Source: a bacterium
GTDB lineage: Bacteria > Patescibacteriota > Minisyncoccia > Phycocordibacterales > UBA9973
Assembly (NCBI GenBank): GCA_021824345.1
Contig: JAKAKW010000010.1
Span: 1-48,986, forward strand
DNA: 48,986 bases
Direction: 5' to 3'
The translations under genes and the position numbers were made by a program. Under the pieces are notes generated by a model that was not told where the DNA came from, searched no databases, and worked only from the letters and a program-made list of their open reading frames with translations. Positions 8,036 through 13,433 of the stretch are shown here, piece by piece. Position 1 is the stretch's first letter; each line of letters opens with the position of its first letter.

Positions 8036-8157
8036 GCACAGAGGGCAAGATATGTTCTTCTTCGGGTACGGGATTTTTCTTGCTAGAAAAATCCCTGAAG
8101 TTCTCGCGCCGTCGCGCTCGAAACCCCCTGCGAAAAACATGTCTTGCCCTCTGTGCT
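8035..8157. repeat. long branched palindromic element between xer and xth
   Basis: 22-bp arms AGCACAGAGGGCAAGATATGTT/AACATGTCTTGCCCTCTGTGCT (one G-T), inner GGGATTTTTCT/AGAAAAATCCC. Confidence 0.85.
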
Positions 8158-8168
8158 ACAATTTACTT

Positions 8169-8963
8169 ATGCGAATAATTTCCTGGAACGTAAACGGCAT
8201 ACGGGCGGTGCATAAAAAAGGATTGTTTTTGCCGTTTGTAAAAAAATACAAGCCGGATATTCTTTGCCTGCAGGAAACCAAAGCGGAGCAGAATCAGAGC
8301 CCGATTGACTTGCCTGATTACGAAGAGTATTGGAACTCGGCCGAGCGCAAAGGATACAGCGGGACAGCCATCTTCACCCGCGTGAAACCTAAAAAAATCA
8401 TGCTCGGTTTGCCGGAGGGGATAGAGAAAAAATACGATCTGGCTGATGATTATGGAGATCCGAACAAGGAGGGCAGGGTAATCGCTGCAGAATATGAAAA
8501 ATTTTTTGTGGTTTCCGTTTATACGCCAAACGCCAAAGATGATCTTTCTCGCCTTCCTCTTCGCCATAAGCAATGGGATCCGGCCTTTCTCGAATATATG
8601 AGATCACTGGACAAGAAAAAACCGGTAATATTTTGCGGGGATTTGAATGTCGCCCATACTCCGGACGATCTTGCTCATCCTAAAGCAAATGAAGGGAAGA
8701 AAGGTTTCACGAAGGAAGAGCGCGAAGGAATTGACAGAATTATCTCGGCCGGTTTCACGGATACGTTTCGCCTGTTTACAAAAGGCAACGGACACTACAG
8801 CTGGTGGAGCCATTTCGCCAACTCCCGCGCCCGGAACGTCGGCTGGCGCATAGACTACATTTTTGCGAGCATACGTTTGTCAAAAAAAGTGAAACAGGCG
8901 AAAATTTTGCCGGAAGTAATGGGCTCCGACCATTGCCCGGTGATGATTGAGATTTCGGAATAA
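8169..8963 (+). CDS. xth: exodeoxyribonuclease III / AP endonuclease
   Basis: ISWNVNGIRA, LCLQETK, GDLNVAH, GWRIDY, GSDHCP; start moved to MRIIS. Confidence 0.96.
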   Translation: MRIISWNVNGIRAVHKKGLFLPFVKKYKPDILCLQETKAEQNQSPIDLPDYEEYWNSAERKGYSGTAIFTRVKPKKIMLGLPEGIEKKYDLADDYGDPNKEGRVIAAEYEKFFVVSVYTPNAKDDLSRLPLRHKQWDPAFLEYMRSLDKKKPVIFCGDLNVAHTPDDLAHPKANEGKKGFTKEEREGIDRIISAGFTDTFRLFTKGNGHYSWWSHFANSRARNVGWRIDYIFASIRLSKKVKQAKILPEVMGSDHCPVMIEISE

Positions 8964-8990
8964 AATGATAGAATAGCGAAGCGAAAGCAT

Positions 8991-9072
8991 GCCGCGGTGG
9001 TGAAATTGGTAGACACGTACGCTTCAGGTGCGTATGGAGCAATCCATGGGAGTTCGAGTCTCCCCCGCGGCA
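8991..9072 (+). tRNA. tRNA-Leu(CAG)
   Basis: GCCGCGG acceptor stem, anticodon loop TTCAGGT, long variable arm, GTTCGAGTC T-arm; CCA not encoded. Confidence 0.95.
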
Positions 9073-9078
9073 CAAGGT

Positions 9079-9558
9079 CTACCCGTTTATTTTTACATTC
9101 AGTGAAATATCGGATTTTTTCTCTAAGGATCCATCGGGTCTTTTTTCTGATATCTTGTATGTGTAGACACCCGGTTTCGTTGCCGCAAAGACGTTTAAGG
9201 TAATTATGATTCGCAATCTACTTTTCCCGGTTTCAAATTTTATCTGATTTTCACTTGGGATCAATACTTTGTTTTCGGAGTCAATTATTTCAATAACTAG
9301 GGTTGAAATAAATTCATCCTCTGTCTCAGAAATATTCCTCTCAAGTAAAACAACAAGCGAATGTTCGAAGGGAACTAAAATCTTGTCCTGGGAATGACCG
9401 GTTTCTTGCCCGGGTAGCGCAGAACTTTGGGTTTTATTGATGGAAACTTCCTCAAGAACATTAAATATGCTCAATTGATTAGTTTGTTGATCCACAGAAG
9501 CGTTTTTGCATATTATTGACCAGAGCGCTTTAAAATGATTTTTTGTTTTCTTGTCCAT
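9079..9558 (-). CDS. hypothetical beta-rich protein (DUF6941-like)
   Basis: [22 protein letters not shown]-terminus, PGVYTYKI; third gene of a low-GC operon. Confidence 0.6.
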
Positions 9559-9563
9559 AATAA

Positions 9564-9947
9564 TTATTTATGCGTTAAGACACTAAACCGGGAAGAGGAT
9601 GAATCAGACTTGCTAACTGTGCAATATGGTGAGAGCATTTCCCTATCGTTAATTATCTCCAATCTCTCAGTTCCTTCCCTATTTTCCATAAAACCGAATT
9701 TTGGAAAAAGAAAATCGGTTTTAATCGCTTTGGCAATCTTATAAAGAAATTCAATGCTTGCGATCATTTTTCCATTTTCTGCTCTTGCCACACTCGGCTG
9801 CTGAGTCCCAATTTTTTCAGCAAGCTCCGCTTGAGACAAACCTGAGTGAATTCTGGCAGCGGTAATAAGTCCTCCTACCTTTATAGCAATTATTTCCTTA
9901 TCAGATAAATTGACACTATTCTCTTTAAAGTATTTCTTGAAGTCCAT
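9564..9947 (-). CDS. XRE/HigA-like HTH antitoxin with C-terminal extension
   Basis: ARIHSGLSQAELAEKIGTQQPSVARAENG. Confidence 0.85.
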   Translation of the reverse strand: MDFKKYFKENSVNLSDKEIIAIKVGGLITAARIHSGLSQAELAEKIGTQQPSVARAENGKMIASIEFLYKIAKAIKTDFLFPKFGFMENREGTERLEIINDREMLSPYCTVSKSDSSSSRFSVLTHK

Positions 9948-10338
9948 TTTGGTTATTTAAATAATTAATAAATTCCGCTACTCGCCCCCGTGCCGCATCC
10001 CTATGCCTATTTTTTATGCATTGTTCCTTCTTTTTGAAAGCGTATAAAGCATAAAAAGTGTGAAATCCGTCTTCTCTGATTAAGCAACCTAAAAACCTTA
10101 TCTCATTTTTCCGGTAAAGATGAAATTTTAATTCCCACATATTCCTTTCACTCTTTACCTTCTCTAGATCACCTAGAGCTTGTACGCGGGTTATTGCCTC
10201 TTGGACATATTTTTTCATTTTTTCTTCTAATGAAGCGAAAAGAAATTTATCCTTCCTGTTCATTGTTTTCAATAAGTCTCTTTCTACCCGGCAAATTCTA
10301 TCTTCGGTAATCCAAAGGTCTATTGACCACTTTTCCAT
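9925..10338 (-). CDS. RelE/ParE superfamily (HigB/Gp49-like) toxin
   Basis: MWELKF...EIRFLG...LYAFKKKEQ; overlaps the downstream HTH gene. Confidence 0.75.
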   Translation of the reverse strand: MEKWSIDLWITEDRICRVERDLLKTMNRKDKFLFASLEEKMKKYVQEAITRVQALGDLEKVKSERNMWELKFHLYRKNEIRFLGCLIREDGFHTFYALYAFKKKEQCIKNRHRDAARGRVAEFINYLNNQNGLQEIL

Positions 10339-10418
10339 TTGATATTTTCGACCTTAATAATAACATATAAGGTATATATACCAAATCCGTTATATAAATG
10401 CAATATTGACTACAAAGT

Positions 10419-11222
10419 CTAGGTATGATGTAAAAAAATTCGAATAATCCGAGTTTTTTCCAAAAACCATTTGGCGGAAAGTTTTTTTACGTTGGCGGTG
10501 ATGTCGGTCACTAAAATTTTTGCGGTGCTCTTTTGGGAAAGCTTGCCGGATATTTGGGAGTGCAGACGAAGATATTCTTTCAATTTCCGCGGGACTATCT
10601 CGTCTTGGGAAATTATTTTCACTTTCTTGCCGGCGATCCGGCGTATTTGCGATTTAAAAAAAGGATAATGGGTGCATCCGAGCACTATCGCTTCCGGTTT
10701 TTTGGCAAGGAGCGGTTTCAAGTATTTGCCGATAAATTTTTCCGCCAGTTTTTTTTCTCCTTCCTCGGCCAAAGGCACCAGCATCGGAGCGGGGTTTTGA
10801 AAAACTTCCGCTTTTCGGTTTTTCTTCAAAATTTCTCTGGAAAAACTGCCGGAAGCCACGGTGCCGGCGGTGGCCAATACTCCGATCCGCGAGTATTTTG
10901 CCGCCTCTTCGGCGGCGGGAATGAGAACGCCCAAAATTTTCCGGCCTGGAAAATTTTGGGCCAGGTATTCCTTCTGCAATTTTCGCAATGCTCTGGCAGA
11001 AGCGGTATTGCAGGCCACGATTACGACGGCGCAATTTTCTTTCCGGAATAGATAGTCCACGCATTCTCGGGCAAATTCATATACCGCATCATGGGAACGG
11101 TTCCCGTATGGCACTCTTTTGGTATCGCCCAAATACGCGTAGTCATATTTAGGCATTTCCCGGCGTATGGCTTTGGCTATAATCAGTCCGCCCAGCCCCG
11201 AATCAAAAATTCCTATCTTCAT
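10419..11222 (-). CDS. murI: glutamate racemase
   Basis: IGIFDSGLGGL, VPYGNRS, VACNTAS, LGCTHYP. Confidence 0.97.
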   Translation of the reverse strand: MKIGIFDSGLGGLIIAKAIRREMPKYDYAYLGDTKRVPYGNRSHDAVYEFARECVDYLFRKENCAVVIVACNTASARALRKLQKEYLAQNFPGRKILGVLIPAAEEAAKYSRIGVLATAGTVASGSFSREILKKNRKAEVFQNPAPMLVPLAEEGEKKLAEKFIGKYLKPLLAKKPEAIVLGCTHYPFFKSQIRRIAGKKVKIISQDEIVPRKLKEYLRLHSQISGKLSQKSTAKILVTDITANVKKLSAKWFLEKTRIIRIFLHHT

Positions 11223-11400
11223 GAGTTTAATATTAGCACACCTTGCAAATCGCCTTATCGTTTTTATTAAAAAACTTGACATTATCTTTACACAGTTATA
11301 CTATTAATAGTGTAATTAATTTCTACCTGCCCGGCAGTTCAGATCGGATACTCACGCATAATGGGCCCTCCCGAGTCCAAATAAATCGGGACAAAGAGCT

Positions 11401-11756: not shown

Positions 11757-13433
11757 GTGCAAAAAACCTGCCAAAACTGCGGAAAAAATTTTGAAATCCC
11801 GAAAAAGGATCAGGACTTTTACGAACGGGTAAGCTCCCCCGCCCCGAATTACTGCCCCGATTGCCGAATGCAGAGGCGCCTATCTTTCCGCAACGAGCGC
11901 ACCTTGTACAAAAGGCCTTGCAGTATGTGCAAAAAATCGATTGTTTCCCTGTATCCTGAGAACACAGAGTTTCCGGTATACTGCCACGACTGCTGGTGGA
12001 GCGACAAATGGGACGGCCGGGATTCCGCCTTGGACTATGACTCGTCCAAGCCGTTTTTTGATCAATTCGCGGAACTCATTAAAAAAGTGCCTCGCCTGGC
12101 CCTGAATGTGATCACTAGCACAAACAGCGAATACACCAACAATTCCGGAGACAACAAGAACTGCTATTTGATTTTCGCAGCTGAACAAAACGAAGATTGC
12201 ATGTACGGCCGGCTTATACAGCATTGCAAAGGTTCCGTAGACTGCGCTTTCCTATATGATTCCGAATTGTGCTACGAGTGTCTGGACTGCCGGGGACTTT
12301 ACAATTCCATGTACTGCGAACGATGCCAGTCCAGCACGGATCTATGCTTCTGTTTTGACATGCGAGACTCCAACAACTGCCTTTTCTGCTCGGGCGGACG
12401 GCATATGGCCAATTCCGTCTTTAACAAAAAAGTTTCCAAGGAGGAATTTCTGGAAAAGAAAAGGGAAATCTTTTCTTCACATGAGAAGCTTGAAGAAGCG
12501 AAGAAAAAGTTCAAAGAGCTGAAAGGCAAGTCTTTGGTAAAATACGCTTATGCCACAAAGTGCAATGACGCTACCGGCGATTACATGTTTAACTGCCATG
12601 AGGCAAGACGGCTATTTGACGCTTCAAATGCAAAGGCATGCGCGTATTTGGCGGACGCTGAAGATCCTATAGATACTTATGACGGGAATAATATATATTA
12701 CAAACCGGAACTCTGCTATGACTTAATGGGCATATTGCAATGTTACAGCGTTAAACATTCTTCCTACGTTTTTTACTGCAATAATATTGAATATTGCGAC
12801 AGCTCCTACAACCTCGCGAACTGTTTCGGTTGCAACGGACTGAAAAAGGGAGAATATATGATTCTAAACAAACAATACGGAAAGGAAGAATATGAAAAAA
12901 TAAAATCAGAAATAGTGGAAAGCATGAAAAAGGAAAAAACATATGGAGATTTCTTCCCTCCCCGCTTAAGCCCGTTCGGTTACAATGAAACCTTGGCCAA
13001 AGAATACTTCCCGATGGAAGAAAAAGAAGCTGAAGAGAAAAAATTCAACTGGCAGAAGAACGCGACGGGTACCTACGGCAAGGAGACGATAAAAGAAATT
13101 CCGAAAACTATTGAAGAAGTGGGAGAAAATGCGCTGAAGGAAGTATTTGCCTGCGAAGAATGCAAGAAGAACTTCCGTCTGACAAAATCCGAGCTTGATT
13201 TCTACAAGCGCATGGGCATTCCCCTTCCGCACAAAGACTTTGAGTGCCGGCACCATGAACGGATGTCGGAGCGCAATCCCCGCAAGCTTTGGCATCGACA
13301 GTGCATGTGCGACAAAACCGGCCACCCGGGACACTCCGGCAGAAAATGCGGAAACGAATTTGAAACCAGCTACTCCCTCGACCGTCCGGAAACGGTCTAC
13401 TGTGAAGAATGCTATCAGCAAGAGGTATCGTAA
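11757..13433 (+). CDS. Cys-rich multi-zinc-ribbon protein (family common in CPR)
   Basis: CQNC, CPDC..RRLSFRNERTLYKR, CHDCWWSD, central Cys-rich short repeats, C-terminal CEEC and VYCEECY. Confidence 0.8.
   Translation: MQKTCQNCGKNFEIPKKDQDFYERVSSPAPNYCPDCRMQRRLSFRNERTLYKRPCSMCKKSIVSLYPENTEFPVYCHDCWWSDKWDGRDSALDYDSSKPFFDQFAELIKKVPRLALNVITSTNSEYTNNSGDNKNCYLIFAAEQNEDCMYGRLIQHCKGSVDCAFLYDSELCYECLDCRGLYNSMYCERCQSSTDLCFCFDMRDSNNCLFCSGGRHMANSVFNKKVSKEEFLEKKREIFSSHEKLEEAKKKFKELKGKSLVKYAYATKCNDATGDYMFNCHEARRLFDASNAKACAYLADAEDPIDTYDGNNIYYKPELCYDLMGILQCYSVKHSSYVFYCNNIEYCDSSYNLANCFGCNGLKKGEYMILNKQYGKEEYEKIKSEIVESMKKEKTYGDFFPPRLSPFGYNETLAKEYFPMEEKEAEEKKFNWQKNATGTYGKETIKEIPKTIEEVGENALKEVFACEECKKNFRLTKSELDFYKRMGIPLPHKDFECRHHERMSERNPRKLWHRQCMCDKTGHPGHSGRKCGNEFETSYSLDRPETVYCEECYQQEVS

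Follow-up and report, generated by a model that had tools for sequence, protein, structure and literature searches.

We analysed a 48,986-nt stretch of DNA, hereafter the window, from contig JAKAKW010000010.1 of a patescibacterial genome (GCA_021824345.1; 0.83 Mb, 16 contigs, 99.97% complete), and focused on a cassette of three genes with the appearance of a toxin-antitoxin (TA) operon. The three open reading frames (ORFs) are tightly packed on the minus strand at 9079-10338, in the operon-like order toxin, antitoxin, third gene. The toxin ORF (9925-10338) encodes 137 amino acids of a Gp49/HigB1-type protein, a predicted mRNA interferase of the RelE superfamily. The antitoxin ORF (9564-9947, 127 aa) overlaps it by 23 nt and consists of an N-terminal segment with an XRE-type helix-turn-helix (HTH) domain (residues 1-79; 9711-9947), in which the HTH_3 match covers residues 30-79, and a C-terminal tail (residues 80-127 and the stop codon; 9564-9710), a candidate partner-binding element resembling the ChAD of published antitoxins. 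The third gene, which we call gene 3 (9079-9558), begins 5 nt past the antitoxin stop and encodes 159 aa of a DUF6941-like, all-beta protein with a predicted Ig-like sandwich fold, the proposed binding partner of the tail. An initial annotation, made from the sequence alone, had described a low-GC islet of three genes abutting a tRNA-Leu gene, and all three ORFs were found where it had put them. GC content is 0.32-0.38 over 9050-10400 compared with 0.45-0.50 in the flanks. The tRNA-Leu(CAG) gene, detected with ARAGORN on the plus strand at 8991-9073, is convergent with the cassette and forms the boundary of the islet, with 5 nt separating the tRNA from the gene 3 stop codon. Among the data sets listed as containing the islet there was no RNA set; the four DNA sets belong to one study, which may be the source of this DNA.

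In a genome of the same genus (G256), a recombinase gene, an exoIII-like gene, a murI-like gene and the gene next to them are syntenic with the flanks of the cassette at 67-73% identity. The exoIII-like and murI-like ORFs of G256 lie 2 nt apart, with neither tRNA-Leu nor cassette between them (L101, G256:C9, 1502-3069, compared with window positions 8052-11282). Relative to G256, on which alone this comparison is based (the other same-genus genome is not syntenic at the site), the tRNA-Leu gene and the cassette form an insertion of approximately 1.45 kb. Since G256 has no tRNA there, the tRNA-Leu gene belongs to what differs between the two genomes, and not the cassette alone.

As a single sequence, the toxin just missed the Pfam Gp49 cut-off (PF05973; E 1.8e-4, 21.9 bits against 23.9 bits). 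All four of its syntenic orthologues in the same phylum exceed that cut-off, and 11 of 14 orthologues found with the motif scan described below match Gp49 at E<=1e-3, one of them (L030, 21.7 bits) below the cut-off. A profile of the window toxin with its 17 syntenic orthologues (alignment A4, 18 sequences) matched the structurally solved toxins HigB from S. pneumoniae (E 1.5e-15 for 6af3) and HigB1 from M. tuberculosis (E ~4e-10 for 7nbu and 7awk); the match to HigB-2 was weak (E 0.012). HigB1 is the toxin of the classical toxin-antitoxin-chaperone (TAC) system, according to the available passages of the published work. Because the A4 profile matches HigB1, the toxin is assigned on sequence grounds to the TAC toxin family (Gp49/HigB1), though the single sequence misses the Pfam cut-off; the early call of a RelE/HigB-like toxin is thereby borne out. 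Both this assignment and that of gene 3 to DUF6941 (see below) become secure because they were made with profiles of relatives rather than with the single window proteins. No defence-system model in PADLOC matched the toxin or gene 3, and the antitoxin gave only generic HTH matches.

A toxin that scores under the Gp49 cut-off could also be read as a sign of decay, and one related locus is clearly degraded: in L065 (1769-2812) only 75 aa of the toxin are left, the antitoxin ends at 88 aa, where the tail starts, and the C-terminus of gene 3 has diverged. That the window cassette is in decay or inactive, and now without function, is nevertheless very improbable. Its three ORFs are intact and their junctions coupled, the toxin retains R81 (the sole invariant column of A4) together with the ELK/R..F.KK pattern of its 17 orthologues, and an operator pair and a promoter-like site are present upstream.

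The antitoxin matches HTH_3 (PF01381) well above threshold (E 6.7e-13; 48.9 bits, cut-off 23 bits). The match leaves 29 residues on its N-terminal side and 48 on its C-terminal side. NCBIfam gave weak matches to HipB/Y4mF-type antitoxins. The tail beyond the HTH had been described as Ser-rich and about 40 residues long; it does contain one Ser-rich stretch, among aromatic and beta-prone segments, and its length is closer to 48 residues. Tail length was defined as the residues left after an HTH model built from tripartite antitoxins. The tails of 18 tripartite antitoxins measured in this way are 38-72 aa long (median 53.5), and those of 17 tripartite antitoxins from metagenomes 38-80 aa. For the bipartite control we took the 30 Gp49 loci that scored best among 301 same-phylum genomes; 29 of these loci have a toxin ORF and a downstream HTH antitoxin; the thirtieth, with no intact toxin ORF, was left out. 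These bipartite modules of the HigBA type (Gp49/HigB-HTH) resemble the cassette in both protein families, in having the toxin gene first and in a palindromic operator located at the promoter. Unlike the cassette, their antitoxins end 4-29 aa past the HTH (median 6), a range that does not overlap that of the tripartite antitoxins, and no downstream DUF6941-like gene, scored as a match to the gene 3 family alignment A1, was found in any of the 29. The window genome itself carries two further Gp49-HTH pairs with short antitoxins and no gene 3, namely L001 (G000 contig 4: 1459-2149; toxin 106 aa, antitoxin 113 aa) and L002 (G000 contig 11: 1459-2078; toxin 102 aa, antitoxin 68 aa), both without a tail. 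A long antitoxin tail goes with the presence of gene 3.

The tripartite tails are poorly conserved, with a P[KR]F.F[ML]E-like start in a subset and scattered aromatic, strand-like segments. In these features they resemble the published ChAD, which the accessible part of its description presents as the most variable part of TAC antitoxins, a C-terminal extension that is recognised through its aromatic residues and contributes beta-strands to the chaperone (10.1101/2024.02.24.581848). A complex prediction pairing the full antitoxin alignment with the gene 3 alignment, run without controls, scored 0.29 against a mark of 0.32, a value that speaks neither for nor against binding.

Upstream of the toxin, the palindrome GGTATATATACC (10371-10382) had been singled out as a possible operator. 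The exact 12-mer occurs once in the window against 0.02 expected; perfect 12-nt palindromes as such are not rare, with 22 in the window. The palindrome gains meaning as the centre of two paired sites whose motif is conserved ahead of related operons. These sites make up a candidate double operator at 10360-10393, a 34-nt imperfect inverted repeat (17+17 nt) of two 16-bp ATANC-N6-GNTAT sites that begin, on the coding strand, 55 and 37 nt ahead of the start codon. Of 18 tripartite loci, 14 have ATANC-N6-GNTAT in the 120 nt preceding the toxin start; in 1000 trials with shuffled upstream regions, the mean number of loci with the motif was 0.09 and the highest 2. This enrichment is descriptive, since the motif was defined post hoc on the same 18 loci. 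A promoter-like site on the minus strand (TTGGTA-16-TATTAT with TG; 10357-10384), identified by a consensus scan only with 9/12 matches, overlaps the operator. The conservation of the operator sequence fits autoregulation by the orthologous HTH antitoxins, and the palindrome has gained support as a candidate operator.

Gene 3 by itself did not reach the cut-off of Pfam DUF6941 (PF22091; E 3e-4, 21.6 bits against 27 bits), and a search of its own genome for the DUF6941 family gave no match at E<=0.1. A word-index homologue search with gene 3 returned the query alone. An exhaustive search yielded 577 representative clusters at E<=1e-3, 104 of them at E<=1e-10; among the 150 best clusters, the relatives are 120-175 aa long save for one 2027-aa protein with repeated matches. 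A1 aligns gene 3 with 97 relatives, 68 of which match PF22091 at E<=0.01. Compared by hhalign with a profile of 21 canonical DUF6941 proteins, A1 gave a probability of 98.5% (E 3.7e-15, 134 columns), and on the basis of this comparison gene 3 is placed as a divergent member of the DUF6941 superfamily. A structure match to a DUF6941 cluster in the Atlas (TM 0.71) was also obtained. Searches for longer, fused forms of gene 3 found one methyltransferase fusion and no fusion to an HTH or toxin domain. What looked like a 520-aa fusion in L107 was discarded, being an ORF of GC-rich DNA in the wrong frame.

An alignment-based AlphaFold2 model of gene 3 (pLDDT 90.2, pTM 0.84) contains nine strands and is free of helices; a fold predicted from the single sequence was of poor quality (pLDDT 53) and was set aside. 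Foldseek against the PDB put RhoGDI, PDE6-delta and Unc119 on top (E ~1e-4, TM ~0.45, identity ~8-10%), and an exhaustive structural aligner returned generic Ig-like sandwiches at Z 9.7 and lower. The A1 profile found nothing significant among PDB sequences. RhoGDI, PDE6-delta and Unc119 share the Ig-like sandwich with gene 3, and RhoGDI and PDE6-delta shelter the C-terminal tail of a partner. The likeness is weak (TM ~0.45), generic sandwiches score as well, and we claim no homology. PapD-type proteins and small heat-shock proteins are further beta-sandwich chaperones.

We also considered gene 3 as a SecB-like protein and rejected this. Neither Pfam (PF02556) nor NCBIfam gave a SecB match for gene 3, its predicted fold is an Ig-like sandwich, and no SecB chain is among the fold matches listed by Foldseek or the exhaustive aligner. 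The SecB family (PF02556) likewise had no match anywhere in this nearly complete genome. The earlier description of the third gene as a beta-rich, DUF6941-like protein other than SecB agrees with these results.

To define how often the three-gene order recurs, we used two kinds of sampling. Five of 401 same-phylum genomes, this one included, match A1 at E<=1e-5, and neither same-genus genome does. All five have the order Gp49-like toxin, tailed HTH_3 antitoxin, gene 3, with Gp49 above its cut-off in the four foreign loci. The wider sampling used a degenerate DNA pattern of the gene 3 N-terminal motif, with neighbours ignored in choosing loci; it covers the part of the family that retains the motif. 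In species genomes the scan gave 62 loci, 60 of them with an ORF matching the A1 model. An HTH_3 antitoxin lies directly upstream of gene 3 in 14 of the 60, preceded by Gp49 at E<=1e-3 in 11. A different conserved gene pair is upstream in 35 (class II, see below), a DUF4124 protein in three and HicA-HicB in one, and seven are alone or unclear. From metagenome contigs, the best 80 of 120 stretches were taken with their DNA, and 76 have a family ORF. These divide into 17 of the HTH-antitoxin type (toxin model matched in 12; three without upstream DNA), 43 of class II, eight with too little upstream DNA and eight others. The counts measure recurrence and not independent events, because the loci are related and some metagenome loci duplicate genome loci (L175 and L066, for example, are on contigs of equal length). 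The hosts of the tripartite order are Patescibacteria, Chloroflexota and one gammaproteobacterial metagenome-assembled genome. We are confident that the three genes form a real, conserved TA operon of tripartite type, made up of a toxin of the HigB1 type, an HTH antitoxin that regulates its own operon and a third gene related to DUF6941.

Gene 3 relatives also follow TA pairs of other families. At the HicA-HicB locus, gene 3 is downstream and the HicB-side antitoxin extends ~65 aa past its Pfam domain. One metagenome locus encodes a HigB_toxin (PF09907; E 3.8e-23), then a 245-aa HTH protein with a ~120-aa tail, and gene 3; another encodes DUF4258, then DUF2283 with a ~53-aa tail, and then gene 3. 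Because gene 3 follows unrelated toxins, and the shared feature is a long-tailed middle protein, the tail rather than the toxin is the likely common partner. Our main inference rests on this long-tailed middle protein, which is common to the well-characterised contexts whatever the first gene. That the gene 3 protein acts via the antitoxin tail as a TAC-like stabilising partner is a proposal whose chances we consider evenly balanced.

Conserved membership in an operon is silent on which partner gene 3 touches, and the two adjacent operator sites could need higher-order antitoxin assemblies that might involve the tail. The target of gene 3 might then be the toxin or the TA complex, which it could further neutralise, help to assemble or equip with a sensor subunit, and the tail might serve oligomerisation or operator cooperativity. 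We think this unlikely, given that gene 3 also follows HicA, the PF09907 HigB, DUF4258 and the CHAP-like enzyme of class II, and that what these contexts share is a long, variable tail on the middle protein.

In a quick tree, all 18 TA-linked gene 3 copies fall in one half, together with eight Chloroflexota class II genes and the HicAB copy; the tree leaves a single origin of the TA link unsettled. The expectation that homologues of the third gene would be linked to TA pairs, which the initial annotation had proposed to check by a neighbourhood survey, holds for the near subfamily and only partly for the wider family, most of which is in the class II cluster.

Class II is a widespread and apparently undescribed three-gene cluster (loci within L009-L070, for example L047:1315-2893, L010 and L040), with hosts in Planctomycetota, Thermodesulfobacteriota, Myxococcota, Chloroflexota and others. 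Its first gene encodes a cytoplasmic, CHAP/NlpC-P60-like protein of ~170-190 aa with weak Pfam matches to DUF7689 and CHAP. Residues C64, H117, E146 and H149 are invariant (numbering of the first sequence of alignment A5), and there is a YNCxG..WASRRT motif. A search of PDB sequences with the profile of this enzyme found nothing significant. The second gene encodes a ~125-aa helical domain followed by a variable tail of 45-90 aa that often ends in ..AA, ..VA or ..TA, and the third gene a DUF6941-like protein. From its gene content, the cluster may be a further toxin/immunity/partner system. In two metagenome loci (L219:2266-3926 and L209:4-1058), a secretory-lipase/alpha-beta-hydrolase-like gene and a small ORF precede the DUF6941-like gene.

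Canonical DUF6941 proteins of Patescibacteria are homologous beta-sandwiches similar in size to gene 3 and form a separate subfamily, which adjoins HSP70/DnaJ, ClpP-like protease or housekeeping genes and not TA pairs. PF22091 matches 28 of the 401 same-phylum genomes, mostly genomes other than the five with the TA-linked form. We read the neighbourhoods of 27 of these loci, leaving out the G154 locus. HSP70 (dnaK), DUF6941 and DnaJ genes stand in a row in five (L132, L137, L141, L147 and L149), DUF6941 is beside HSP70 only in one (L151), and DnaJ is close by in one (L155). In two others, a gene for a ClpP-like serine protease of the SDH type is directly upstream (L144:450-1857 and L148:1486-3344). 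At L148, an HTH_3 gene is located ahead of the protease and DUF6941 genes. These neighbourhoods tie the DUF6941 superfamily to proteostasis genes and, as evidence from gene position, make a holdase-like activity plausible.

The same data bear on a further explanation, in which gene 3 is a protease adaptor or anti-antitoxin that binds the tail and hands the antitoxin over, or makes it accessible, to a protease of the Clp/Lon type, tuning toxin activation. The association of tail and gene 3 fits this equally well. Canonical DUF6941 directly follows the ClpP-like protease gene in the two loci above, the ClpX-associated PDIP38 is among the weak Foldseek matches of gene 3 (E 7.2e-4, TM 0.38), and the ..AA, ..VA or ..TA ends of many class II middle-protein tails resemble C-terminal degrons. 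We still regard an adaptor role as improbable. An operon that constitutively makes the destabiliser of its own antitoxin would poison its host unless finely balanced, the protease link amounts to two loci and the fold match is generic, and the dnaK/dnaJ neighbourhood suits a holdase better.

Several observations weigh against a stabilising partner dedicated to TA pairs. Most of the family members sampled have no recognisable TA pair next to them, with class II accounting for 35 of 60 and 43 of 76, and two near relatives of gene 3 stand alone (L017 and L023). A1 matches 21 of 401 genomes in the phylum to which the HicAB locus belongs, and that single locus is the one beside a TA pair; of the 20 remaining loci, all without a TA pair, six have a ~143-aa DUF6941-like gene just downstream of mnmE (trmE) (L108, L110, L111, L113, L114 and L115), and others adjoin BipA, AI-2E transporter or FolB genes. 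Each of the three non-Gp49 TA contexts is a single locus. The sampled loci are related and partly redundant between the two collections, and neighbouring ORFs were called by a longest-ORF script. No relation of gene 3 to SecB could be detected in sequence or fold, and the lack of an HTH-DUF6941 fusion among the longer forms found counts weakly in the same direction. In the published work, as far as the accessible text goes, SecB is likewise split into housekeeping copies and copies dedicated to TA systems.

Relatives that are alone or beside housekeeping genes such as mnmE, BipA and dnaK/dnaJ would also be expected if gene 3 were a functionally separate passenger of the TA lineage, with a general role such as that of a stand-alone stress or holdase protein. 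This appears quite unlikely, in view of the exact order in all five same-phylum matches and in 31 further sampled loci, with short or overlapping junctions, the long tails seen only at loci with gene 3, and the recurrence of gene 3 with three other TA families.

The stabilising-partner model draws on the known TAC systems, of which we compared M. tuberculosis HigB1-HigA1-SecB-like (Rv1955-57) and E. coli HigBAC, MqsRAC and CmdTAC. Common to these and the cassette are the order toxin, antitoxin, third gene in one operon, the Gp49/HigB1 toxin family, and an HTH antitoxin whose C-terminus, unlike that of bipartite relatives, is extended by a variable segment bearing aromatic residues. As in the SecB-TACs of the literature, in the portions available, one third-gene family is joined to several unrelated TA pairs. 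Unlike in TAC systems, the third protein of the cassette is a ~150-aa monodomain Ig-like sandwich of the DUF6941 family and not SecB. For the cassette, the TAC features of chaperone dependence, ChAD function and phage sensing are putative. The initial annotation had seen the cassette as a mirror of HigB-HigA-SecB. The architecture supports this in the toxin family, the tailed HTH antitoxin and the recurrent third gene, and the parallel stops at SecB. Because its third protein is not SecB, which defines that class, the cassette, which on present evidence resembles a TAC system, is better regarded as a variant than as a member. A literature search with subscription journals and preprint supplements outside its range found no paper naming DUF6941 or DUF7689 and, in titles and the starts of abstracts, no non-SecB third partner of this kind.

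Taken as a model, the cassette would be a conserved, horizontally mobile, tripartite type II TA operon. The toxin would be a ribosome-dependent mRNase of the Gp49/HigB1 type. The XRE-HTH antitoxin would neutralise it and repress the promoter through the paired ATANC-N6-GNTAT operators. The DUF6941-family beta-sandwich would hold the 48-residue antitoxin tail, probably through strand addition. The gene 3 protein would substitute for the SecB-like chaperone found in TAC systems, maintaining the solubility of the tailed antitoxin and/or protecting it from proteolysis, and loss or diversion of this partner would free the toxin. The identities of the genes, their conserved synteny, the association of the tail with gene 3 and the conservation of the operator are shown by the data above; that gene 3 binds the tail, that neutralisation depends on it and that phage proteins or another trigger act on the system are the steps we infer. 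In recent work, according to the parts available, the SecB-like TAC chaperone is the component that senses phage proteins. An anti-phage role for the cassette is possible by analogy. The one pointer in this direction is a gene directly downstream of a related tripartite cassette (L005:695-1456), whose product resembles Abi_alpha (PF14337; E 7.8e-6) at 26.5 bits, short of the cut-off.

More tentatively, and with some doubt on our part, the DUF6941 sandwiches may constitute a second dedicated family of TA chaperones, unrelated to SecB and recruited from a housekeeping holdase of the dnaK-dnaJ operon of the candidate phyla radiation. Such proteins would grip tails in at least four TA families (Gp49/HigB1-HTH, HicAB, PF09907 HigB-HTH and DUF4258-DUF2283) as well as that of the middle protein of class II, a system built around a CHAP-like cysteine hydrolase, and could serve as infection sensors, by analogy with SecB-TACs. 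The TAC literature found by full-text search, in the passages available, describes a SecB-like chaperone throughout. If the proposal is true, chaperone addiction would have arisen more than once as a design, with a structurally unrelated partner family. It would also provide a first testable function for DUF6941 and would draw attention to a three-gene system, so far unexplored, that is common in Planctomycetota, Thermodesulfobacteriota and Chloroflexota.

Elsewhere in the window, two genes away from the islet, the plus strand at 11757-13433 encodes a 558-aa Cys-rich ORF with many CxxC pairs.

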